Positions 6,351 through 17,493 of a DNA stretch of 64,000 nt are shown here, piece after piece. Below the pieces are notes generated by a model, which was given only the letters and a program-made list of their open reading frames with translations, was not told where the DNA came from and ran no database searches. The stretch is taken from contig JBEKGM010000005.1 in assembly GCA_050012795.1 (NCBI GenBank), positions 21,574-85,573 of the forward strand, written 5' to 3'. The DNA comes from Candidatus Bathyarchaeia archaeon (GTDB lineage: Archaea > Thermoproteota > Bathyarchaeia > 40CM-2-53-6). Position numbers and translations under genes: made by a program. Positions within the stretch are counted from its first letter, which is position 1; each line of letters begins with the position of its first letter.

Positions 6351-7415
6351 TTAACTAGCTTTCACTTCAGCCAGGGGTACATAATCGCAGATTGCACTAG
6401 GCTTCTCAAGAATACGGTTGATTGTTATTTCTCCAATAATCCTGCAGTACTTGTTTATTTGGCCCAGGTTCAAGACTATGCTTCTGAGGCTGACGGCAGT
6501 GTTCACGTCCTTAACGTACATTAACACTTTCTGGGTGAGGCGCCTCTCTTCACTTTCTGAAGTCTCCACCCTCTCGACCGAATCGTTAGAGATCTGAATG
6601 TCTGAAGCCAGAAGCGCCTTCATGCTGAGTTCTGAAGTCTTCATAACTTCGTTGGCGTACTTGCCCACCTCATTAAGGATTGAATCACTTACAGCTTCCT
6701 CGTCCTTCAACGCGATGACTTCGTTCGCAATATTCTCCGCTGAATCCGCCATCTCCTCAAGCGTCTTCGCTACAACCCTGTTCCCCGGAATATGGAGTGG
6801 TGATTCAATACCAATCCTCGTGCCAACACTCCTGTCCCTGATTGCGAGTAGCAGCTGGCGAACAATTAGCCAATAAATCCTATCCGACTCCTCCTCCATG
6901 TGGCCAACTTCCACCGCTAGGTCGGGTCTCCGCTCCACTAAGGCCTTGATAGAGACGTCTAGCATTGAGGAGAGTATGATGTGCAGCCGGCGCATCAGTC
7001 CATATATTGGAAATCGAGTTGGGTCAACGAAACTCTGCAGCGTGACTTGGCGGAGCGTCTGCTCCACGATGCTCAATCCGGTTAACCGCTGCGTCGTGGC
7101 TCGAATCTCATCGAGGTGAACTTTCTTCAATTCGTCTTTGGCAGCGATCTGGATGGTGTCATGGCCAAGAATGTAATTTGCCGTAATTACTCGGGTTAGG
7201 AGGTTGGTTGAGTTGCAGAGGTCAGCGTTTACGACGCAGTTCTTTACCTCTTCGCTCTTATGCTCCGTGCCAGGGATAAGTTTGAGGGAGCCATCATCTT
7301 CACGTTTTATGGAAACAATGTCTCCTGCTTTGAGCTTAACATCCTCGACCCATTCTCGTGGCAGTGATACTGTAAGGGTGGAATATCCGACTCTCTGGAC
7401 TTTCCTAGCTTCCAA
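6351..7415 (-). CDS. AbrB/SpoVT-domain plus PhoU-like-domain regulator (archaeal PhoU-type), paralog 1
   Basis: N-terminus LEARKVQRVGYSTLTVSLPREWV (AbrB-like swapped hairpin), followed by helical PhoU-like repeats. It aligns along its whole length with the ORF at 14954-16048. The TTG at 7415 matches the paralog's N-terminus; the track start is 7445. Confidence 0.8.
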   Translation of the reverse strand: MEARKVQRVGYSTLTVSLPREWVEDVKLKAGDIVSIKREDDGSLKLIPGTEHKSEEVKNCVVNADLCNSTNLLTRVITANYILGHDTIQIAAKDELKKVHLDEIRATTQRLTGLSIVEQTLRQVTLQSFVDPTRFPIYGLMRRLHIILSSMLDVSIKALVERRPDLAVEVGHMEEESDRIYWLIVRQLLLAIRDRSVGTRIGIESPLHIPGNRVVAKTLEEMADSAENIANEVIALKDEEAVSDSILNEVGKYANEVMKTSELSMKALLASDIQISNDSVERVETSESEERRLTQKVLMYVKDVNTAVSLRSIVLNLGQINKYCRIIGEITINRILEKPSAICDYVPLAEVKAS

Positions 7416-7526
7416 GCTAAGCACGAAGGAATATAGTTTAAGCACTAGAATATAGCTTTCAGTACTTGGTCCCGGAATTCAAACTAGAAGCCTTCGAGCA
7501 TAGAGAATGCGTGCCGATTCTTCACT

Positions 7527-8741
7527 TCACGTAGAGAACGCGTAAGAGAATACGTACTCGCCGATGCGTTGTACGCCAACTTTGATTCGGTCTTCGGGTT
7601 CACTCACGAACGTAAACCTGACGTGGCCCACTCCTTTGGATCCAAAGTATGACCCGGGAATAACGATGACTCCTTTTCGAGTAAGTAGCCGGTTGCAGAA
7701 GTCCTGCTCGTCCCTATCCATGAGCTCTAGGTAATGGCGCATGTCAACGAAGAAGTAGAAAGCACCGTCGGGCCTGACGAGACCTGCTTCAGGTAGGTAC
7801 TGCTTTATCGCCTCTTCCATGATGTCGCGTCTCTTCTTGTAAATTGGTAGAACGTAATCATGGAGGTATCGTTCCTTCACGTTATTCTTCAGGAAGGGTA
7901 GTACAGCGTATTGACTCAGGATGTTTGGCGCAAGCGTCGAGTACTGTTTGATCTTCTCGATGCCATCTATGAGTTCTGATGGGCCTATTGCGTAGCCCAG
8001 TCTCAATCCGGGTACGGATGCTTCTTTCGAGAAGCTTCCAACTGAGAGGACACGCTCATGCGCGCCAGGTAATGAACTGATTTTGGGCTGCTGCTTATCG
8101 TAGACGATGTCACGATACGTTGAATCGTTGACCAGCCAGAAATCATAGTCGATGGCTAGGTCGAGTAGTCCTTTGATGAAGTCTTGGTTGACGATTCTCC
8201 CGGTGGGGTTATCAGGGCTAAGGAGAACCACGGCCTTGGTTCTTTTCGTAACCACTTGTTTTAGTACCTCCAGACTCGGCTGGTAGCCCTCCTCCACATT
8301 GACTGGAAGCCATGTCGCGCGAGCTCCCGCCAGTTGGAAGGCTTCCAAGTAGCCGAGATAGGTTGGGTTGGTGAGAACCACCTCATCGTTCTTGTTGAAT
8401 AAAGATAGAAACGCGCAGAAGATGGCTTCCGTAGCGCCATCTGTCAGAATTAACTCCTTTTCAGGGTTGTACACTTCGCCATCGTGCTTCACCCAATCAT
8501 CTGCGATTAGCCTTCTCAACTCCAGAAAGCCACGTGTCCCACAGTACGCCGTGCTCCCCTGAGGATCCTCCCTCACTCTTCGAATAATCTCCTCGGAGAC
8601 TTCAGGGGGCGGTGGAAGGCTGGGTCCACCTCCACCGAATGAGATTAACTCTTTTCGTTCGGTTGCTTCAGCGAACAGGGCCGTTACGCGGCGGATGGGA
8701 GAGACATGTAAACTCGCGATTCTGTCGGAGAGCGTCACCAT
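7527..8741 (-). CDS. class I/II pyridoxal-phosphate aminotransferase (aspartate aminotransferase-like)
   Basis: SFSKEASVPGLRLGY (PLP-lysine motif), N-terminal SPIRRV and the NPTG motif. ATG at 8741 (MVTLSDRIA) is the probable start. Confidence 0.85.
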   Translation of the reverse strand: MVTLSDRIASLHVSPIRRVTALFAEATERKELISFGGGGPSLPPPPEVSEEIIRRVREDPQGSTAYCGTRGFLELRRLIADDWVKHDGEVYNPEKELILTDGATEAIFCAFLSLFNKNDEVVLTNPTYLGYLEAFQLAGARATWLPVNVEEGYQPSLEVLKQVVTKRTKAVVLLSPDNPTGRIVNQDFIKGLLDLAIDYDFWLVNDSTYRDIVYDKQQPKISSLPGAHERVLSVGSFSKEASVPGLRLGYAIGPSELIDGIEKIKQYSTLAPNILSQYAVLPFLKNNVKERYLHDYVLPIYKKRRDIMEEAIKQYLPEAGLVRPDGAFYFFVDMRHYLELMDRDEQDFCNRLLTRKGVIVIPGSYFGSKGVGHVRFTFVSEPEDRIKVGVQRIGEYVFSYAFST

Positions 8742-8940
8742 TAATGTGAGCCTGCATTGCCGCCTTTCATTAACGAGGGCTTGAATCATTCTAATTTAGT
8801 ATAAATACTATCCGTAGCGTAGTACTAGTTGATGATAGGGGTGCAGCGACGTAATACTGGAGTTTCGGGACGTCGTAAATACATTAAATGCGAAAGGGAA
8901 TTGCACCTTGCAGCTGTTATAGAATCACGAGGTTCCGCTA

Positions 8941-9363
8941 TTGTGCATGAATTACGTTGAGGGGGGTACGTGTCACGTGACAGGCCGGCAATGCCTGCTC
9001 GGAACCTCCTATGAGGTTAATCGTGAATGTGCTATTCGAGGCAATTTTGATGTGTGGATCACTTGCGACGATAGGGTGTTGATTAGTGATATTGGTCCGC
9101 CTTCTCCTGAACCGAAACGTTCTGTGGCATTGGGCGTTGGTAAGAGAGTGGCAGATGAGATAGCAGTACTTACGGCTCGAAACTCTGGGGAAATCATCAC
9201 TACGCAACAGAGATGTCGCCATTGTGCTGGAACATACTGGATCACTGATCACGAGTCTTCGGTCGCTAGACTGGGGCGACGGCACTTCTGTCCGAAGTGT
9301 ATAGAGAAGTTTGACAAGTGCAGCGTTGGAGAGTTTGACGTTCCGGATTACTGGTGCGGCTGA
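8941..9363 (+). CDS. hypothetical Cys-rich protein with C-terminal zinc-ribbon (CRHC...CPKC)
   Basis: 140-aa ORF in an otherwise empty gap. Its composition is more protein-like than the overlapping 204-aa minus-strand ORF. I recognise no family. Confidence 0.4.
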   Translation: MCMNYVEGGTCHVTGRQCLLGTSYEVNRECAIRGNFDVWITCDDRVLISDIGPPSPEPKRSVALGVGKRVADEIAVLTARNSGEIITTQQRCRHCAGTYWITDHESSVARLGRRHFCPKCIEKFDKCSVGEFDVPDYWCG

Positions 9364-9389
9364 GTTACTGCGTGGCCCAACTTGGTATG

Positions 9390-9980
9390 CTACGGGGATT
9401 TTTCCGCGCGGTACTCTAGTGGGTTCGACTTCACGAAGGCTCTGCCCTTCTCGATTGCGAGAGAGTTGAGTGATAGGAGGCTCTCCTTCTTGCCTGCGAG
9501 GAAGTGCTTCAAAGTTTCTTTCGTCACATCGGCGCCAAGGTTGGGTGTGCACAGTTCGAGAAACGCCCCAAACATCACTGCGTTAGCGAACATCTTGGTG
9601 TCGGTCTTCGATAGGTTCTCGTTGCGTAGGCTCTCCGCGATCTCAGTTGCTGGAATGCCGAAGCTTTCTACGTCGTCGCGTTCTGCATGAGTTTGGATTA
9701 GGGTTTGGTTATAGATGATGAGGCCTCTTGGACGTAGGTCGTTTAGGAAATCCATTGAGGGCTGATTCATTATTAGTTCGACGTCGGGTTCTTCAGCGAT
9801 TGGGTTATCGACGACTTGATCAGAGATTATGACGTAGCATTTCGCTTTGCCGCCTCGAGTTTCCGGACCGTACGATGGGACGTACGCTACGTGCTTGCCC
9901 TGGAGCATTGCAGTGTATGCCATGTAGTCGCCTAGGAGCATGATTCCTTGGCCGCCGTGGCCGGCAATTAGAACCTTCAT
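9390..9980 (-). CDS. 2-oxoacid:ferredoxin oxidoreductase gamma subunit
   Basis: MKVLIAGHGGQGIMLLG...YGPETRGG pattern. ATGA overlap with the beta subunit. Confidence 0.9.
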   Translation of the reverse strand: MKVLIAGHGGQGIMLLGDYMAYTAMLQGKHVAYVPSYGPETRGGKAKCYVIISDQVVDNPIAEEPDVELIMNQPSMDFLNDLRPRGLIIYNQTLIQTHAERDDVESFGIPATEIAESLRNENLSKTDTKMFANAVMFGAFLELCTPNLGADVTKETLKHFLAGKKESLLSLNSLAIEKGRAFVKSNPLEYRAEKSP

Positions 9981-10789
9981 TTTGGTGATGGTTTTTCAAC
10001 TCCGTATGTATCCCGGTAGACGCCTAACGGAAACCGTTTGATCACTTGCTCGTTGACGTAACGTTTCGCTTCAAGCACAGACATCTTCCAATTCACTGAA
10101 CATGTGCTCAGTAATTCTACGAAGGCGAATCCGCCTAGGGCCTGCACCTTGAACGCGTTTTCCACGGCTTTTTTTGCGTCAAGTAGATTCTTTATCGTGT
10201 ATACTTTTCCTCTAGGATTGGAGATCTCGCTCACAACTAAGCTAGCTCGTTTGACGTACGCAGCGCCGTCTATCTGCCCGATTAACTTTGACGCGTCAAG
10301 TTCTGTTCCGGTCAATGCGGGATCACGCCCGTATGGTGTGGTTGTCGTGACCTGACCTAGGAGAGTTGTGGGTGCCATCTGGCCGCCGGTCATTCCGTAG
10401 ATGCCGTTGTTTACGGCGAATATTGTTATTGGCGTTCCCCTCTTAGCCGCGTAGATGGTTTCGGCTAATCCGATGGACAGCGCGTCTCCGTCTCCTTGTA
10501 CTGTGAACACGGTCAGTTCTGGTCTTAGTCGCTTGACTCCAGCGGCTACTGCGGGTGCTCTTCCGTGCGCGGCCACGACATGGTCGCAGTTGAAATAGTT
10601 GTATGCTAGCACGCTACAGCCAACGGAATCTATCATTACAGTCTTCTCCCGTATGTCAAGGTCGTCCATGGCTGCCGCGATGAGTTTTGTGAGTGTCCCA
10701 TGTTCACACCCGGCACAGTAGTGAGTAGGGTTCTCAGTAAGTGACTTGATTTTTCCAACTTTCACTTTCAGAACAGACTGCTCGGTCAT
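9977..10789 (-). CDS. 2-oxoacid:ferredoxin oxidoreductase beta subunit (ThDP-binding)
   Basis: CAGCEHG N-terminal Cys motif and the GDGD ThDP motif. ATGA overlaps on both sides. Confidence 0.9.
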   Translation of the reverse strand: MTEQSVLKVKVGKIKSLTENPTHYCAGCEHGTLTKLIAAAMDDLDIREKTVMIDSVGCSVLAYNYFNCDHVVAAHGRAPAVAAGVKRLRPELTVFTVQGDGDALSIGLAETIYAAKRGTPITIFAVNNGIYGMTGGQMAPTTLLGQVTTTTPYGRDPALTGTELDASKLIGQIDGAAYVKRASLVVSEISNPRGKVYTIKNLLDAKKAVENAFKVQALGGFAFVELLSTCSVNWKMSVLEAKRYVNEQVIKRFPLGVYRDTYGVEKPSPK

Positions 10790-11862
10790 ACGGCAGCTAC
10801 CTCCAGCCTATGGACTTCGCGTTCTATTTCCCGCTCCGTGGGTATGATTCCTCCCCATCTTCCGAGGAAATCAATTGTCACTCCACTACCGACTGCAAGC
10901 CTCACGTCCTCAATCATTTGGCCCGTGTTTAACTCAACGTCGAGAAACCGTTTTCCTTCAGAACTCAGCTTCTGGAGAGCGCGTGATGGGAAGGGCCAGA
11001 GCGTGATTGGTCTGAATAATCCGACTCGGATTCCTTTTTTGCGTAGGGTGTTAACGACGCTTCTAGCAATTCTTGAGACGATTCCGAAGGCGATGATTAC
11101 AACTTCAGCATCTTCAGTGAGATACTCTTCGTAAAGTACCTCTTTCTCTTCTGCCGTTTTATACTTCTTGAAGATCCGGCCAATGTGTTCGTAGTGTTTT
11201 TCATAATCGAGCTCCATGGAGTTTAAAATGTGAGGGCCTCTGCCTTTCGAGTTGCCGACTGCCCATGATGAAACATCATAGTCCTGTGTCTCCCATGTGG
11301 GGAACTCAACGTCCTCTTTCAGCTGGCCGGTGAACGCGTCCCCTAATATGAGGACTGGATTTCGATACTTGAAGGCAAGGTCGAATCCAACTTTTGGAAG
11401 CGTGGCCATCTCTTGTACTGAGGCTGGAGCCAGTACGAATAATCGGTAATTCCCGTGTCCGCCGCCTTTTGTTGCTTGGAAATAGTCGCTTTGTTCAGGT
11501 CCGAGGTTGCCTAATCCTGGTCCCGCGCGACAAATGTCGACGATTAGGAATGGTAGCTCCATGCCGGCTGCGTACGAGAGGCCTTCCTGTTTCAGGCTGA
11601 AGCCGGGACCTGATGTTGCCGTCATAGTGAGGGCTCCGGTTGATGCTGCACCCAGAACCATGCTGATTGCTTCTAGTTCGCTTGATGATTGAATGAAGCA
11701 TTTGTACTTAGGATACTTCTTGTTACCGAACTCTCGGGCGAGGGTTTCCGGGATCTCGCTTGACGGGGTTATCGGGTACGCGAAATACGCGTTCAGTCCG
11801 GATTCTAATGCTCCGTACGCAAGCGCTTCGTTGCCTTTCATGTAGACTTTCTGATTGGGCAT
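10786..11862 (-). CDS. 2-oxoacid:ferredoxin oxidoreductase alpha subunit
   Basis: MKGNEALAYGALESGLNAYFAYPITPSSEI, a typical alpha-subunit N-terminus. Confidence 0.9.
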   Translation of the reverse strand: MPNQKVYMKGNEALAYGALESGLNAYFAYPITPSSEIPETLAREFGNKKYPKYKCFIQSSSELEAISMVLGAASTGALTMTATSGPGFSLKQEGLSYAAGMELPFLIVDICRAGPGLGNLGPEQSDYFQATKGGGHGNYRLFVLAPASVQEMATLPKVGFDLAFKYRNPVLILGDAFTGQLKEDVEFPTWETQDYDVSSWAVGNSKGRGPHILNSMELDYEKHYEHIGRIFKKYKTAEEKEVLYEEYLTEDAEVVIIAFGIVSRIARSVVNTLRKKGIRVGLFRPITLWPFPSRALQKLSSEGKRFLDVELNTGQMIEDVRLAVGSGVTIDFLGRWGGIIPTEREIEREVHRLEVAAV

Positions 11863-12111
11863 CTATGTTTTCGCCTGAACCTCCTGGATGGCATAATCTG
11901 GGCAAACCCAGTAGCAGATTGCGCAGCCTGTACAGGTTCCCTTGGTTCCCTGATACGTGAACTCTACTGGATGGAACCCGGCATGATTCAGTCTAGTCGA
12001 AAACTTCAGATTCCCTGATGGACATGACACAATGCACAACTCGCAACCTTTGCAGCGCTCCTCGAGAATTTTCACGTTGGCTCGTGGCCCTATCGTGGCT
12101 GTCTCGGTCAA
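11863..12111 (-). CDS. 2-oxoacid:ferredoxin oxidoreductase delta subunit (2x[4Fe-4S] ferredoxin)
   Basis: CKGCELCIVSCP and CTGCAICYWVCP motifs. The TTG start overlaps the upstream stop (TTGA). The delta-alpha-beta-gamma order resembles Kor/OorDABC-type clusters. Confidence 0.9.
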   Translation of the reverse strand: MTETATIGPRANVKILEERCKGCELCIVSCPSGNLKFSTRLNHAGFHPVEFTYQGTKGTCTGCAICYWVCPDYAIQEVQAKT

Positions 12112-12560
12112 GCTGCTATCTTCTCCTTCTCGTCCACGAAATTTTCCAGAACGTATCGAAGCATAGCGTAGTGCCGCTCTTCGTCTAATGCGAGCATTGT
12201 GAAGAGTGACTTTAGATGAAGATCAGTTACCTGAGTCGAGGCTCTCGTAAAGAACCGTAATGCTTCCTCTTCTAAGTTCATTAATCGTAGAAGCTCCTCG
12301 CGGCTCTCTTTCACGGGGGCTGATTCCCATTCACTCTTGGTCATGTAGGTTATTGCGGAGTTTAGGACATCGGCGTGGTGCATTGAATCTCTCATGAGTT
12401 TGGCGTACACAAGTTTCACGAAGCTGTGATCCGTCTCTCGCACCTTACGAGCGTAGACCTCAGTCTCCAGCTCTTCGTGGCGCATTTGCTCCTTTAACAT
12501 TGCCAGTAACTCATCTTTTCTCATACGCCGACATGAAAACCCCAGATGGTAATTACTCAT
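12108..12560 (-). CDS. ferritin-like / rubrerythrin-like four-helix-bundle protein (uncharacterised)
   Basis: 150 aa, helical, with paired acidic/His motifs (EELETEVY, MRDSMHHADVL, LEEEALRFF, LDEERHYAML). Translationally coupled to the OFOR delta subunit. Confidence 0.55.
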   Translation of the reverse strand: MSNYHLGFSCRRMRKDELLAMLKEQMRHEELETEVYARKVRETDHSFVKLVYAKLMRDSMHHADVLNSAITYMTKSEWESAPVKESREELLRLMNLEEEALRFFTRASTQVTDLHLKSLFTMLALDEERHYAMLRYVLENFVDEKEKIAA

Positions 12561-12608
12561 AGGATTGCTGTAGATATTCTATGTACTCTACTGTTTTTAA
12601 TTACACAC

Positions 12609-13385
12609 CTATTGCGGGATTGGCACAGCATTCGCGACGGCCATGTCCATGTAAGTGTACTTCCTGAGATCCGCAACCTGTTTTAGAGTTAACCTCGAAC
12701 ATGCAAACCCCCAATGGAATGAGATCCAGTCGCCAGGCTTCAAATTGTTCATGAAGCTTCGGCCGTTGACTCGTGAGATTACTCTTGCATGGGCGGGTTG
12801 GCCGAAGGATAGAAGCCCATCTCTTCTCTGAATGGGTTCGTATTCAACCGTCAAATTGCCATCCTTATCCGAGGAGAGAACGTTTCCCCAGGATATTCGA
12901 CACTTATCCATCAACTCTCCAACCTGATCATCACGTCCCGCAGCATTCGCAAATGCGTCCGGTACAGTACCCATGGTTGAGAACGCGTTGAAGACATGGA
13001 GCGCGTGATGCGGAAATGTTGCGAACGGCCTTGATTCGAATAACCTCTTGATATGTTCCTTAGGGAATTTTCGCTCCAATCTTTCTCTAAGGTGTTCGTA
13101 GAATCCAGCCCGAGGAATCTTATCGAGTAGGTCATTGCCGATCCAGTAGGCCTCTACAACTCGATAATCGAAAGTCTCTAAGCCCAGGCTTTGGGCGATG
13201 AATCTCAAGTATGGTTGAGCACCTTTGAATGCTTCGAGCGCTTTGAGAAGCTCCTTGCTTCGCTTGTTCGTTAGGCAAGCCTCAAGCAGGACTTCGTTTT
13301 CGTCAGGGCCACAATATCCGAGACGGTTCGGCATGAAACTGTGCCGGGCAGCTAGGACGGCTCCGTCGTCCTTTCCTGAACTCAC
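12609..13385 (-). CDS. conserved hypothetical protein (258 aa), immediately downstream of hypC
   Basis: Long ORF whose GTG start lies 1 nt after the hypC stop. Notable motifs are LGYCGPDEN, FPHHALHVFNAF and SFHWGFACS. It has no HypD motifs (no GPGCPVC). Confidence 0.7.
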   Translation of the reverse strand: MSSGKDDGAVLAARHSFMPNRLGYCGPDENEVLLEACLTNKRSKELLKALEAFKGAQPYLRFIAQSLGLETFDYRVVEAYWIGNDLLDKIPRAGFYEHLRERLERKFPKEHIKRLFESRPFATFPHHALHVFNAFSTMGTVPDAFANAAGRDDQVGELMDKCRISWGNVLSSDKDGNLTVEYEPIQRRDGLLSFGQPAHARVISRVNGRSFMNNLKPGDWISFHWGFACSRLTLKQVADLRKYTYMDMAVANAVPIPQ

Positions 13386-13386
13386 T

Positions 13387-13629
13387 TCAGAACATTCCTT
13401 CTGATGTTCCGAACTCCGTCCCTATTATTCTCAGCGCGTCGATTACTTCCTGTGCTTCAGATTCTTTGAGTATTTTAATAGCGAAGCCCCCTTGCACGAG
13501 CACGAAGTCTCCGACTTTTCCCTGAATTAAGCTGTTGTTAACGTTCTCTCGAATTCCTTGATCGCCATAGTCAACTGATACGAACTTACCGTTGACTGCA
13601 ATTATCTTGCCCGGGATTGAGAGGCACAT
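13387..13629 (-). CDS. hypC: hydrogenase maturation chaperone HypC/HupF family
   Basis: MCLSIPGKII... with the essential Cys at position 2 when started at ATG 13629. About 80 aa with an OB-fold-like pattern (DFVLVQGGFAI). Confidence 0.85.
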   Translation of the reverse strand: MCLSIPGKIIAVNGKFVSVDYGDQGIRENVNNSLIQGKVGDFVLVQGGFAIKILKESEAQEVIDALRIIGTEFGTSEGMF

Positions 13630-13765
13630 TTTCGTCATCACCCACCTGAATATCCGGCGCCTATATGTTTGTGAAACAATTCCCAGTTCTGGAATAATAT
13701 TGTAGCTTGTGGAGGTTGGAGAAGAGGTTCATTACGTTGAAGGATTTACAGGAAGCTGACGGGTA

Positions 13766-14449
13766 ATGGCAAAACGGACAGAGATCGTTACTTCTTCGGA
13801 GGATGAAGTGTTCGATATCGAATTAGAAGCGGACATCCTGAAGGCGAATAGGCAGTTAGCTCTGGAAAATCATGCTAAGCTGAAGGAGAACGATATCACT
13901 GCGATAGATGTAATGGGATCGGTGGGTTCAGGAAAAACATCCCTGATCAAAGCCATCGTTTCCCTCCTTAAGGCGACTCATCGAATAGCCGTGATTGAAG
14001 GCGATGTTACAACAACGATCGATGCAGACATCATCGCCTCAGAAGGTGTTCCTACGGTGCAAGTGAACACGGGTAAAGAATGCCATCTTGATGCTAACCT
14101 CATAAAGAAAGCACTCGCGCGGATGCAATTGTCCAAATTGGATCTAATCTTCATCGAGAATGTCGGTAACCTAATTTGCCCGGCAGAGTTCCCACTCGGG
14201 TCGGATAAGAGACTCGTTGTGATCAGCGTCACTGAAGGCCCATACATGGTTGTCAAGCATCCGATGATGTTCCATGAGGCGAATTCCGTGGCGATAAACA
14301 AGGTTGATTTGGCCGATGCAATGGGAGTTGATCCCTCTAACCTGAAGGGGGATATCTCTAGGCTAAACCCTAAAGCGACGGTCGTGTCCACTGACTGCAG
14401 ACACATGGTGGGTATCCGGGAAGTGATTCGCAGCCTGGGGTTAGCGTAA
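13766..14449 (+). CDS. hypB: hydrogenase nickel-incorporation GTPase HypB
   Basis: GSVGSGKTSLI P-loop, ENVGNLICPAEF metal/switch motif and NKVDL. Confidence 0.9.
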   Translation: MAKRTEIVTSSEDEVFDIELEADILKANRQLALENHAKLKENDITAIDVMGSVGSGKTSLIKAIVSLLKATHRIAVIEGDVTTTIDADIIASEGVPTVQVNTGKECHLDANLIKKALARMQLSKLDLIFIENVGNLICPAEFPLGSDKRLVVISVTEGPYMVVKHPMMFHEANSVAINKVDLADAMGVDPSNLKGDISRLNPKATVVSTDCRHMVGIREVIRSLGLA

Positions 14450-14468
14450 AGTCTAGAGATGGAGACGG

Positions 14469-14852
14469 ATGCATGAGTTCTCTATAGCAACCTCACTAGT
14501 CGACACGCTCCTAGAATTTGCCCAGAAAAATCAAGCGCAGGGCAAGCTGCTGGAGGTCCACCTAAAAATAGGTAAACTACGAGCAATCTCAATCGAACAG
14601 TTGAAGTTCTCATACCGAGTCCTGGCAAAAGACCAGTTCCTTAGCGGGTCCCGATTGATAGTCGAAGAGACTCCAGCCCTACTCCATTGCCCCAAATGTG
14701 GCTTCAGTAAGAATTTTGAGGTTGCAGATGACTCATACCACTTTGCACTTCCAAGCCTATCCTGCCCAAAATGTGGAGCGACCGTAGATCTCGAAGGCGG
14801 AGACGAGGTTGTGATTACCAAGGTCCGCATTAAGGCTCCCTCAAAGAAATGA
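14469..14852 (+). CDS. hypA: hydrogenase nickel-insertion protein HypA
   Basis: MHEFSIA N-terminal Ni site and two CPKCG zinc motifs. Confidence 0.9.
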   Translation: MHEFSIATSLVDTLLEFAQKNQAQGKLLEVHLKIGKLRAISIEQLKFSYRVLAKDQFLSGSRLIVEETPALLHCPKCGFSKNFEVADDSYHFALPSLSCPKCGATVDLEGGDEVVITKVRIKAPSKK

Positions 14853-14953
14853 CTGCAGCCATCAAAAGATCGATTTTCTATATAGAGTCACGTCGCAATA
14901 TATAACAGGGTTGAATCCGCACAATTACGTAAACCGGCACCGAGGAAAATAGA

Positions 14954-16048
14954 TTGGAGATCAGAAAAGTCCAACGCGTTGGACATTCCACGCTTACCGT
15001 CTCTCTTCCCAGCGACTGGGTTAGACAAGTGGGGCTTAAACAAGGAGGAGTAGTGACGCTTCGACTTTCCGAATTTGGAGAGTTGATCGTGACTCCTGGG
15101 AGTGAGCTTGAAGGAGAGGAGACTACAATTTGCAAGATCAACGCAGATGCCTGTAAGGATGGAACGGCGCTCGGGCGAATCATCACGGGGAACTATATTC
15201 TTGGTCGAGATACGATTATTGTCTCCTCCGAAGAGGGATTGACGGCGGAACAGACAACTGAGATCCGTGACTCAACCCATAGGCTGAGCGGGTTAGGTAT
15301 TGTTGATCAATCACAGAACGAGACGATTATTCAGTGTTTTCTTGACCCATCCAAGTTCTCTATCACCAGTCTCTTGTCCCGATTGTATAAGGTAGTGGTG
15401 TCGATGCTTGAGACTTCGATGCAGGCCCTAATGGATCAGAAATTCTCACTCGCGTTACAAGTGTTGGAGCTTGAAGGTGAAGCCGATAGACTATACTGGT
15501 TGATCCTGCGTCAAATCTTCCGTGCAATATCTAAGATACCACTGTCGCGTCACGCCGGTATTGAATCCGCCACAAACGCTGTTGGTTACCGAGCAGTGTC
15601 AAAATACCTCGAGGAGATAGCTGATTGCAGCGAATCAATAGCTAATCAAATTCTTAGCATAGCTGACGAAAACCAAACCCAATCCACCGCCATCATTAAC
15701 GAAATCTGCAAGACGGGAACAGAGGCGCTGGAGATCTGTAAAGGAGCCATGGATTCACTCTTCATGTTGGACAATGACCTTGCCAATCGAATCATCGCGA
15801 AGTGTGAGCGGTTTGAAAAGCTTGAAAGGGATTTAACAGAACAAGTCGTTTCTTCAGTTCCGAATCGTAAGACAGCTGTTGCGCTCAGAGGCGTAGTTTG
15901 GAATCTTACTGAAATCTCCCGATCAGCTAAGATGATCTGTGAAGTCGCCATCAACCGGTATCTGGAAGACAACACCGAGGTCTGCCGCTTCTGGAAGGAG
16001 CGGAAGAGCGGGGGAGAAATCCAATACCTAAAGAAACTAGTAGTCTGA
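14954..16048 (+). CDS. AbrB/SpoVT-domain plus PhoU-like-domain regulator, paralog 2
   Basis: MEIRKVQRVGHSTLTVSLPSDWV... collinear with the ORF at 6351-7415. By eye about 40% of positions are identical. Confidence 0.8.
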   Translation: MEIRKVQRVGHSTLTVSLPSDWVRQVGLKQGGVVTLRLSEFGELIVTPGSELEGEETTICKINADACKDGTALGRIITGNYILGRDTIIVSSEEGLTAEQTTEIRDSTHRLSGLGIVDQSQNETIIQCFLDPSKFSITSLLSRLYKVVVSMLETSMQALMDQKFSLALQVLELEGEADRLYWLILRQIFRAISKIPLSRHAGIESATNAVGYRAVSKYLEEIADCSESIANQILSIADENQTQSTAIINEICKTGTEALEICKGAMDSLFMLDNDLANRIIAKCERFEKLERDLTEQVVSSVPNRKTAVALRGVVWNLTEISRSAKMICEVAINRYLEDNTEVCRFWKERKSGGEIQYLKKLVV

Positions 16049-17493
16049 GACCTTTTTTTGAGCCGAAATCACTCGCAATCGTAGGCGCCTCAGAGACCCG
16101 GAATAGGATAGGTTACGTTCTAGCAGAGATTATGCTTGCAAACAGGCGACGAGGCATCTTCAAAGGCGAAGTGTACCTCGTTAACCCAAAGCACAAGGAG
16201 ATACTTGGCGAGAAGTGTTATCCGAGGGTCTCCGACCTTCCAAGAATTGCAGAAACAGTACTGGTCGCCATACCGTCGATTCACGTTCCGGAAGCGATAG
16301 ACGACGCTGGTCAGTCAGGTACAGTTGCCGGAATAGTCATATCGTCAGGATTCGCAGAAATCGGAAACATCGCGCTTGAGAAGCGACTAGTCGATTCCGC
16401 CTCAAAGTATAAGCTGCGAATTCTAGGACCAAACTGCCTAGGTGTCTACGATCCATATACCGGAATGGACACCCTGTTCCTCCCTGAAACGAAGCTATTA
16501 TCGGATGGCAGGGAAGTAATCGCGACACCCAGACCAAGGCGTGGATCAGTTTCGTTACTCACCCAGAGTGGCGCATTTGGGTGTGCAGCGCTCGACTATA
16601 TGGCTGGCCCCCACGGGATCGGAATAAGAAGATTTGTCAGCTACGGGAACAGGTGTGACGTGACCGAGAGCGAATTGCTTGAATACTTTGCAAACGATCC
16701 CAAGACTAAGGTCATTCTAACCTACCTGGAAGGATTAGCTAATGGCCGCGAATTCACGGAGAAAGCGAAAGAGATTACGAGAAAGAAACCAGTCGTAGCC
16801 CTGAAGGCGGGTAGATCAGAAGCAGGAAAGAGAGCCGCGGCATCTCACACAGCGGCATTAGCGGGCTCGGACCAAATCTATCAAGGAGCCTTCAGAGAAG
16901 CGGGCATCATAAGAGCTCAGAACGTTGAAGAATTCTTCGACTTCGCTCGTGCATTAGCGATGCAACCCCCAGGGCTCACAAACAATGTCGCAGTCGTGAC
17001 CAACGCGGGTGGTCCAGGAATTATTGCAACAGACGCACTAGAAGGTTCAGGACTAGAAGTTCGGAAATTCCCCAAACGGATAATGTCTAAGTTCTCCGAC
17101 CTCAAAGCTGACAAGAGACTGTTGCCGGTTCTCTCGGGCGCAAATCCGATTGACTTAACTGCAGAAGCAACCAGTCAAATGTTCGCACTGACCTTGTCCA
17201 TTCTGCTGGACGATCCGAGCATAGGAGGAATTGTTCTCATTGCATTGCACCATGCGCCAACTATTCTTGATGACGCTGTAGGAATGATAGCGGAGACCAT
17301 AGGGAAACGTACGAAACCTGTGACTGTTTGCGACATGGGGGAGACAGAAATGGCTGAGACCATGAGAACAATGTTCGAGAAGCGTGGAATCCCGTCATTT
17401 TCTATGCCCGAGCGTGCAGCGCGCGCGCTCTGGGCGCTCATTTACTACGGAAGATATTTGAGAGCTCACAATGTTACTGGTAGAAGAGGATAG
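16045..17493 (+). CDS. acdA: acetyl-CoA synthetase (ADP-forming) alpha subunit / CoA-binding NDP-forming acyl-CoA synthetase; start unresolved
   Basis: The track ORF starts at 16132. The same frame upstream encodes PFFEPKSLAIVGASETRNRIGYVLAEI, the CoA-binding Rossmann N-terminus. The catalytic-His region is AASHTAALAGSD. The only plausible initiator nearby is CTG at 16045, which overlaps the upstream TGA. Confidence 0.85.
   Translation: MRPFFEPKSLAIVGASETRNRIGYVLAEIMLANRRRGIFKGEVYLVNPKHKEILGEKCYPRVSDLPRIAETVLVAIPSIHVPEAIDDAGQSGTVAGIVISSGFAEIGNIALEKRLVDSASKYKLRILGPNCLGVYDPYTGMDTLFLPETKLLSDGREVIATPRPRRGSVSLLTQSGAFGCAALDYMAGPHGIGIRRFVSYGNRCDVTESELLEYFANDPKTKVILTYLEGLANGREFTEKAKEITRKKPVVALKAGRSEAGKRAAASHTAALAGSDQIYQGAFREAGIIRAQNVEEFFDFARALAMQPPGLTNNVAVVTNAGGPGIIATDALEGSGLEVRKFPKRIMSKFSDLKADKRLLPVLSGANPIDLTAEATSQMFALTLSILLDDPSIGGIVLIALHHAPTILDDAVGMIAETIGKRTKPVTVCDMGETEMAETMRTMFEKRGIPSFSMPERAARALWALIYYGRYLRAHNVTGRRG

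Follow-up and report, generated by a model that had tools for sequence, protein, structure and literature searches.

What kind of protein is encoded directly behind hypC, in the place where hypD usually stands, in the genome of a bathyarchaeon? HypC normally acts together with HypD, a protein marked by GPGCPVC motifs, on the Fe(CN)2CO moiety. In the stretch of 64,000 nucleotides (nt) analyzed here (Candidatus Bathyarchaeia archaeon, contig JBEKGM010000005.1; hereafter the window), the gene after hypC is an open reading frame (ORF) of 258 amino acids (aa), which an earlier reading of the same sequence (the first-pass annotation) assigned to the HypD slot and proposed as a novel HypC partner. 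Comparative analysis identifies this ORF as a member of the Pfam family DUF6390 that carries a HypC-like domain of its own and accompanies hypC across several phyla. The role that we favor, with a confidence slightly above even, is that of a HypC-like protein which would bind a metal through a Cys2His2 site and work with HypC, as an accessory factor or sensor, in [NiFe]-hydrogenase gene clusters. The maturation of these enzymes is currently seen as a six-protein HypA–F pathway, in which the source of the iron and the CO ligand's origin under anaerobic conditions are open questions (PMC10847431; PMC12134894).

The upstream gene is a hypC by score, by its N-terminal MC(L/I)xxP motif and by its length of ~80 aa, with 66.5 bits (E 2.3e-18) against Pfam HupF_HypC (PF01455) and 55.3 bits against TIGR00074 (cut-off 48). 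Its minus-strand ORF (13641..13387, 84 aa) opens formally at GTG 13641, though translation almost certainly begins at the ATG at 13629 (coding 13387..13629, MCLSIPG, 80 aa), because orthologues begin at MCLS and HypC requires an N-terminal Met-Cys. A TATA-like box (AAACATATAGG, 13660..13670, minus strand) lies ~30 nt upstream of this ATG and reads ACATATAG in six of seven orthologous loci (L003, L004, L005, L007, L011 and L014, not L013); it is a putative archaeal promoter of a unit comprising hypC and the 258-aa gene. The TGA stop of hypC is separated by 1 nt from the GTG start of the 258-aa ORF (13385..12609, minus strand), and the motifs LGYCGPDEN, FPHHALHVFNAF and SFHWGFACS that had been read in the latter are present.

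A search with family models, which the first-pass annotation had recommended for this protein, assigns it over its full length to DUF6390 (PF19927; 188.4 bits, cut-off 25, E 1.9e-55, matching positions 3–239 of the 244 in the profile). It has no NCBIfam match, and a literature search retrieved no relevant paper on DUF6390 or on HypC-like proteins combined with EamA. The family is sizeable: when 1.84 billion cluster representatives are searched with its profile, 1,320 pass E ≤ 1e-3 and 829 pass E ≤ 1e-10, corresponding to ~1,300 clusters at 50% identity. An AlphaFold2 (AF2) model of the window protein (pLDDT 82.6, pTM 0.84) has helices at residues 8–162, a beta domain at 165–232 and a terminal helix at 234–253. 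Together with the Pfam profile, it delimits an all-helical N-terminal domain (residues 1–161; 12903..13385, minus strand) and a C-terminal HypC-like domain composed of an oligonucleotide/oligosaccharide-binding (OB) fold and a helix (residues 162–258 and the stop; 12609..12902, minus strand).

Several comparisons converge on HypC as the relative of the second domain. Among 350,542 PDB chains searched with Foldseek, the best matches of the whole model are HypC structures, namely 2z1c_B from Thermococcus kodakarensis (probability 0.98), 3vyr_A and 3vys_A, the last two being HypC as complexed in HypCD and HypCDE; OB folds of a generic kind, such as ribosomal uS17, rank next. Profile–profile comparison of DUF6390 with HypC by hhalign gives a probability of 93.6% (E 2e-7) with our own alignments and 90.1% (E 1.6e-6) with independent ones. 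HypC is likewise the top match of a profile search of PDB sequences, in which the GDxVSxHWG motif around H224 aligns with GDWVIVHTG of T. kodakarensis HypC. Profile methods are required to see this relationship, since BLASTP of the protein against its own HypC yields just a 13-residue match (E 0.19). The protein thus has the OB-fold beta barrel and C-terminal helix typical of HypC/HupF, but it remains outside that family as defined by score (the isolated C-domain reaches 16.1 bits, E = 0.013, under the HupF_HypC cut-off of 28.5) and by its lack of a Met-Cys N-terminus, the equivalent cysteine being residue 162, behind a 161-residue domain. Judged from these profile and fold matches, the C-terminal domain is homologous to HypC and descended from it. 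The N-terminal domain, modeled alone (pLDDT 73), matches no fold in the PDB at an E value below 3.

DUF6390 genes keep company with hypC well beyond Bathyarchaeia. Loci from species-representative genomes (48) and metagenomes (80), plus those around selected proteins, were screened over flanks of ±10 kb with a HypC hidden Markov model and with Hyp, hydrogenase and transporter queries; the resulting tally is based on 135 non-redundant loci, of which 98 have at least 1.5 kb of upstream sequence. A same-strand HypC-like gene with an MC start lies directly upstream of DUF6390, or one EamA gene away, in 70 of these 98 loci, which is far beyond chance. At least one hydrogenase or hyp gene is present in 81 of the 98, and an EamA gene is immediately upstream in 38. 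The pair is kept in Bathyarchaeia, Chloroflexota, the candidate phyla radiation (CPR/Patescibacteria), Gammaproteobacteria and Actinomycetota, usually with translational coupling and usually in [NiFe]-hydrogenase loci. Genuine large subunits, with both RICGxCxxxH and DPCxxCxxH, occur near DUF6390 in Chloroflexia, CPR, Gammaproteobacteria and Actinomycetota.

The arrangement differs between lineages. In Bathyarchaeia, hypA-hypB is followed by a divergent hypC-DUF6390-(MFS) unit, with hypC immediately upstream in all of the first 16 loci. Chloroflexia have the order small subunit, large subunit, cytochrome b, HycI, HypA, HypC and DUF6390, followed by a NikA-like ABC system. CPR and Gammaproteobacteria have hypC-like-EamA-DUF6390 together with an unknown 125-aa gene, beside Nramp and a small [NiFe] hydrogenase whose large subunit carries canonical nickel-binding motifs. 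In Pseudonocardiales (Actinomycetota), small and large subunit genes and HycI are followed, after further genes, by NifU/Rieske, NHL, HypC and a DUF6390::MarR fusion. Eleven Spirochaetota loci contain EamA-(EamA)-DUF6390 only, amid housekeeping genes.

Three further observations were made in these loci. The unknown gene of ~125 aa is always 3' of DUF6390 in the CPR and gammaproteobacterial hydrogenase loci (L044:10729-11118 and L061:9689-10066; also L046, L037, L038 and L040), has no Pfam or NCBIfam match and is probably another uncharacterized accessory gene. A [NiFe] large subunit from CPR (Buchananbacteria; L018:12778-14079) ends exactly at DPCIACATH and lacks a C-terminal extension, so that endopeptidase processing would be unnecessary. 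Two contigs labeled Methylomirabilota (L004) and Acidiferrales (L013) show bathyarchaeal-type hypBA/hypC/DUF6390 synteny, at 83% and 64% identity respectively, and are probably mis-binned archaeal contigs.

In lineages that lack HypD, could DUF6390 serve in its stead as HypC's scaffold partner? Its position after hypC suggests so, as does the absence of HypD within ±10 kb in all 135 loci and from the 64-kb window. Partner HypCs also mostly do not have His51, a residue tied in Escherichia coli to efficient HypD binding (PMC9002611). The protein itself, however, is no HypD. Homology is rejected by hhalign against E. coli HypD (probability 0.14%), the alignment contains no CGxHxH, GPGCPVC or GFETT motif and no C-terminal [4Fe-4S] cysteines, the fold is dissimilar with an all-helical N-domain, and the protein is ~110 residues shorter. 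Moreover, hypF and hypE, whose products act through HypD, adjoin DUF6390 in some loci (hypF directly after it in L087, hypE before it in L118), so that DUF6390 is found alongside the canonical genes for the cyanide ligand; fusions to transcription-factor domains, described below, would also be unexpected for a scaffold enzyme. What the two share is the gene position directly after hypC and, by analogy only, an invariant N-domain cysteine (C25) where HypD provides Cys41 to the shared iron site. Replacement of HypD is accordingly a remote prospect, and the HypD slot of the first-pass annotation is supported as a place in the operon, not as a function.

The conserved residues of the family suggest a binding site. 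C25, G26, G83, H127, C162, H224 and W225 are the only invariant positions among 82 representatives sharing 26–54% identity with the window protein, and H126, H130 and C229 are conserved in most. A Viterbi alignment of the two profiles matches G167 to G7 of HypC and thereby C162 to its Cys2, and H224 stands in the column of E. coli His51, so that a conserved histidine is found at this position in the 258-aa protein. In HypC, Cys2 binds the Fe(CN)2CO unit together with HypD Cys41 (PMC11565642), and His51, proximal to Cys2, is functionally important and matters for the interaction with HypD (PMC9002611; PMC12134894). We infer that C25, H127, C162 and H224 form a Cys2His2 site at the interface of both DUF6390 domains. 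The context of NikA-like, NicO and HypAB proteins favors nickel as the ligand, and the retained HypC residues favor iron or a HypC-borne unit; the site could possibly hold a Cys2His2-ligated [2Fe-2S] cluster instead or, given the MFS and EamA transporter types nearby, an organic ligand.

The partner HypCs are unusual at the corresponding position. Cys2 is kept in 85 of 86 DUF6390-linked HypC-like proteins, while position 51 is His in 16, Gln in 27, Asn in 15, Tyr in 14, Asp in 10 and something else in a few; the baseline for calling this atypical is the published description of His51 as highly conserved in HypC (PMC9002611). The window HypC follows the pattern, with an N-terminal Met-Cys and a Gln in place of His51. 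The equivalent residue of DUF6390, in turn, is always His (H224). Such complementarity hints at a functional pair without proving one, and the DUF6390-linked HypCs may constitute a distinct HypC subtype.

A different line of evidence comes from fusion proteins. Among the best 150 representatives, DUF6390 occurs as EamA::DUF6390, XRE/HTH_3::DUF6390, PadR::DUF6390, GntR::DUF6390, ArsR::DUF6390 and DUF6390::MarR, the PadR and MarR forms having behind them clusters of 15 and 17 members, which come from several sources and in part have NCBI accessions. All fusion proteins retain C25, H127, C162 and H224, and all are encoded in [NiFe]-hydrogenase loci beside ABC (NikA-like in three of four cases), NicO, MFS or Nramp transporters. 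The PadR locus comprises PadR::DUF6390, an unknown 394-aa ORF, a NikA-like ABC system and the small and large hydrogenase subunits. The XRE locus has a NikA-like ABC system, HypC, XRE::DUF6390, a second NikA-like ABC system and HycI with a large subunit. In the ArsR locus, NicO and the small and large subunits lie opposite ArsR::DUF6390-MFS, followed by HycI and HypA. The GntR fusion is followed by an ABC importer with a small subunit near, and the EamA fusion stands between Nramp and a large and small subunit pair. When one domain is repeatedly fused to unrelated DNA-binding domains, it is usually a module that senses a ligand. DUF6390 shows this signature in its fusions, where ligand binding would be predicted to change DNA binding; the window protein itself has no helix-turn-helix (HTH) domain. 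The 394-aa ORF between PadR::DUF6390 and the NikA-like ABC system (L055:2972-4156) has no Pfam or NCBIfam match.

These fusions also speak for a second account, in which DUF6390 serves only as ligand sensor or as regulatory partner to the transporter beside it (EamA, MFS or ABC), for instance in a nickel- or metabolite-responsive, NikR-like role, and has no direct interaction with HypC, its adjacency to hypC being historical (a tandem duplication) or an operon-end effect. Its fusion partners, an EamA transporter and HTH domains of five families, fit such a role, as do the NikA-like ABC operons, NicO or MFS genes beside the fused regulators, the Spirochaetota loci in which EamA-DUF6390 stands without hyp genes, and the MFS gene that usually comes straight after DUF6390 in Bathyarchaeia. 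It accounts less well for the tight coupling of hypC and DUF6390 in five phyla, also where no transporter is adjacent (the window, L003, L004 and L052), for the retention in DUF6390 of precisely those HypC residues that are relevant to the iron unit, and for the systematic atypicality of partner HypCs at His51. We consider this account unlikely, though more probable than the other alternatives.

That DUF6390 is a metal-binding accessory or sensor working with HypC is itself subject to several counterpoints, the first being that its metal binding, its ligand and its contact with HypC are predictions. The hhalign maximum-accuracy (MAC) alignment leaves out the first half of the OB fold, and the register that equates C162 with Cys2 depends on the fold match, the motif and the Viterbi alignment. 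Among loci whose flanks are long enough, about 17%, most of them from Spirochaetota, have no hydrogenase within 10 kb and offer only EamA-DUF6390 among housekeeping genes, for which reason the core function of the family may be transporter- or ligand-related and not hydrogenase-specific. The adjoining MFS and EamA transporters look like organic-anion or amino-acid carriers, and an organic ligand therefore fits equally well as a metal. Since hypC is frequently the last gene in hydrogenase operons, part of its adjacency to DUF6390 could stem from operon-end insertion, or else from an ancient tandem duplication.

Two more specific roles have been weighed. One makes DUF6390 an enzyme acting on a HypC-bound group, with catalytic Cys and His residues, for example in the synthesis or processing of the CO ligand precursor under anoxic conditions. 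Its invariant Cys/His pairs, novel N-domain and wide spread over hydrogenase groups would suit a catalyst; against this, the repeated fusions to DNA-binding domains and a transporter indicate a binding or sensing module, the family also occurs in aerobic H2 oxidizers and in hydrogenase-free loci, and it is unlike any enzyme fold, which makes an enzymatic role quite improbable. The other treats DUF6390 as the counterpart, in a single self-contained protein, of HypC and a partner cap, in which Cys162/His224 and Cys25/His127 would jointly hold an iron unit and supply an unassigned step of [NiFe]-cofactor assembly. Such a step might be the delivery of iron to HypC, or the forming or holding of an Fe–CO intermediate when conditions are anoxic, and in relatives fused to HTH domains the same bound state would exert feedback on how nickel-transporter and hydrogenase genes are transcribed. 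This is a speculative proposal to which we give a low probability.

The genes downstream of DUF6390 in the window raise the separate question of whether the 258-aa protein and the HypC-like chaperone act on a metallocenter other than that of a hydrogenase. There, a ferritin/rubrerythrin-like gene (12108..12524, minus strand) opens an operon for a 2-oxoacid:ferredoxin oxidoreductase (OFOR). The first-pass annotation gave this gene 150 aa; an ORF is present, but its start is most likely the ATG at 12524 (MRKDELL, 138 aa) and not that at 12560, because the latter lies inside a conserved non-coding element and relatives have no ATG there. With this start, the spacer after the 258-aa ORF is 84 nt and not 48. 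The Pfam Rubrerythrin score is marginal (23.0–23.4 bits against a cut-off of 22.8), and by eye the 138-aa ORF has one ExxH (EERH) and one DxxH (DSMH), set against the E..ExxH di-iron motifs expected of this group. The OFOR genes (9390..12111, minus strand) encode delta (11863-12111; Fer4, 2x[4Fe-4S]), alpha (10786-11862; POR_N and PFOR_II), beta (9977-10789; TPP_enzyme_C) and gamma (9390-9980; POR), the complete set of a four-subunit enzyme in one operon. The ferritin-like stop overlaps the TTG start of delta (CTTGA), as had been described, and the ATGA overlaps reported for all OFOR junctions exist at alpha/beta and beta/gamma, while delta and alpha abut (TAGATG).

The conserved element (TACATAGAATATCTACAGCAATCCTATGAGTAATTAC, 12549..12585, minus strand; 37 nt) combines a TATA-like box with a GTAATTAC palindrome. 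Present in 13 of 13 aligned Bathyarchaeia loci, whether the gene upstream is DUF6390 or MFS, it shows 19 invariant columns and is probably the promoter of the ferritin-like/OFOR operon together with an operator for a regulator. As hypC-DUF6390 and ferritin-like-OFOR each have their own conserved TATA-like element, they would form two transcription units. The operon proposed by the first-pass annotation for this whole series of genes would thus hold for hypC and the 258-aa gene and end there.

Conservation of the order bears on the metallocenter question from both sides. The ferritin-like gene is always directly 5' of OFOR delta in relatives, and the series hypC-DUF6390-(MFS)-ferritin-like-OFOR recurs in 13 of the first 16 Bathyarchaeia loci and in six metagenome loci, with tight spacing in the window. 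The block follows DUF6390 in Bathyarchaeia only, however, a single archaeal class, and an MFS gene directly follows DUF6390 in 14 of the same 16 loci, standing between DUF6390 and the block wherever both are present. Two loci (L001 and L002) have no ferritin-like/OFOR block and instead have Hdr-Mvh [NiFe]-hydrogenase genes nearby, the promoter/operator-like element always precedes the ferritin-like gene, and hydrogenase genes are the partners in every other lineage. Recruitment of HypC to a task linked to the OFOR or the ferritin-like protein, which the first-pass annotation had offered as its alternative, is largely refuted by these comparative data and barely credible as an explanation of the pair.

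As previously noted, hypB and hypA are divergent from hypC: hypB, the nickel-inserting GTPase (13766..14449, plus strand), scores 239 bits against TIGR00073 (E 3.7e-71, cut-off 121), and hypA, the nickel metallochaperone (14469..14852, plus strand; Pfam HypA, 2.2e-24), is the second gene of this hypBA unit and is kept next to hypB in Bathyarchaeia loci with sufficient flank. A phmmer search of the 64-kb window with E. coli HypD, HypE, HypF, HycE and HycG and three [NiFe] large subunits gave no further match at E<1e-3, in line with the earlier statement that it contains no hypD, hypE, hypF or hydrogenase structural gene. Rfam and tRNA scans of the window returned no matches, and a bacterial-type promoter and terminator scan of 9000-15200, a type of scan unsuited to an archaeon, gave counts not above those of shuffled sequences. 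The nearest genome locus, L003, is 93% identical.

Other genes in the vicinity include two AbrB/MazE-PhoU fusion paralogues (6351-7445, minus strand; 14954-16048, plus strand), which flank the hyp/OFOR region and are both conserved in relatives (a cluster of 26 members in 15 loci). A Cys-rich 140-aa ORF (8941-9363, plus strand), convergent with the OFOR operon, is 72% identical to the ORF at the same place in L005 and, on that comparison, is a real conserved gene. A class I/II aminotransferase (7527-8789, minus strand) and an ADP-forming acyl-CoA synthetase-like protein (16132-17493, plus strand) flank the OFOR, and the three would fit an amino-acid fermentation route from 2-oxoacid to acyl-CoA to ATP.

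Among known systems, HypC/HybG (PF01455, TIGR00074) is the closest, with the OB fold and helix in the C-terminal ~95 residues of DUF6390 giving the best PDB matches, invariant Cys162 and His224 holding the positions of Cys2 and His51, and the genes adjacent in hydrogenase loci. DUF6390 differs in that its cysteine is internal, whereas HypC needs a processed N-terminus, in an 18-residue hairpin insert and a 160-residue helical domain ahead of the OB fold, in scores below the family cut-offs (16 versus 28.5 bits) and in relatives fused to transcription factors and transporters, of which none are reported for HypC in the literature searched. HupF of Rhizobium leguminosarum, an extra HypC-derived maturation protein encoded in a hydrogenase cluster alongside normal HypC (PMC3534401), provides a precedent for specialized HypC-domain accessory proteins; it keeps the N-terminal cysteine and adds a C-terminal extension, whereas DUF6390 has a large N-terminal domain, an internal cysteine and a second Cys/His pair. 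For the HTH-fused relatives, NikR and other metal-responsive one-component regulators are a functional analogy, as these too join ligand-binding and DNA-binding domains, and the relatives are encoded beside nickel-type importers that serve hydrogenase synthesis; the fold is unrelated and the window protein has no DNA-binding domain.

Under the favored reading of DUF6390 as a Cys2His2 metal-binding partner of HypC, the window protein would be translated from a transcript of two genes, hypC and DUF6390, that runs divergently from hypBA, with the ferritin-like/OFOR genes as a neighboring operon under a separate promoter. Its Cys2His2 site would bind a metal center, whether Ni(II), Fe(II), a HypC-borne iron unit or possibly a small Fe–S cluster, and the module would read out or hand over a ligand tied to the metal supply of hydrogenase. 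It would act by direct contact with its co-translated HypC, a variant without His51, to load or receive a metal unit or to gate metal supply, and would add to the HypCDEF pathway without replacing it. The suggestion that the 258-aa protein is a novel HypC partner has in this respect gained weight, the pair being conserved across phyla and the protein having a HypC-like domain of its own.

More broadly, DUF6390 is a sizeable family that stays with hypC in hydrogenase loci, both in archaea and in no fewer than four phyla of bacteria, and in which a HypC-derived domain with a conserved Cys2His2 constellation appears to be reused as the sensing half of transcription factors. If it does bind nickel or an iron unit, it would represent a new component of hydrogenase metal supply and regulation, and would be relevant to the heterologous expression of hydrogenases from lineages that carry DUF6390.

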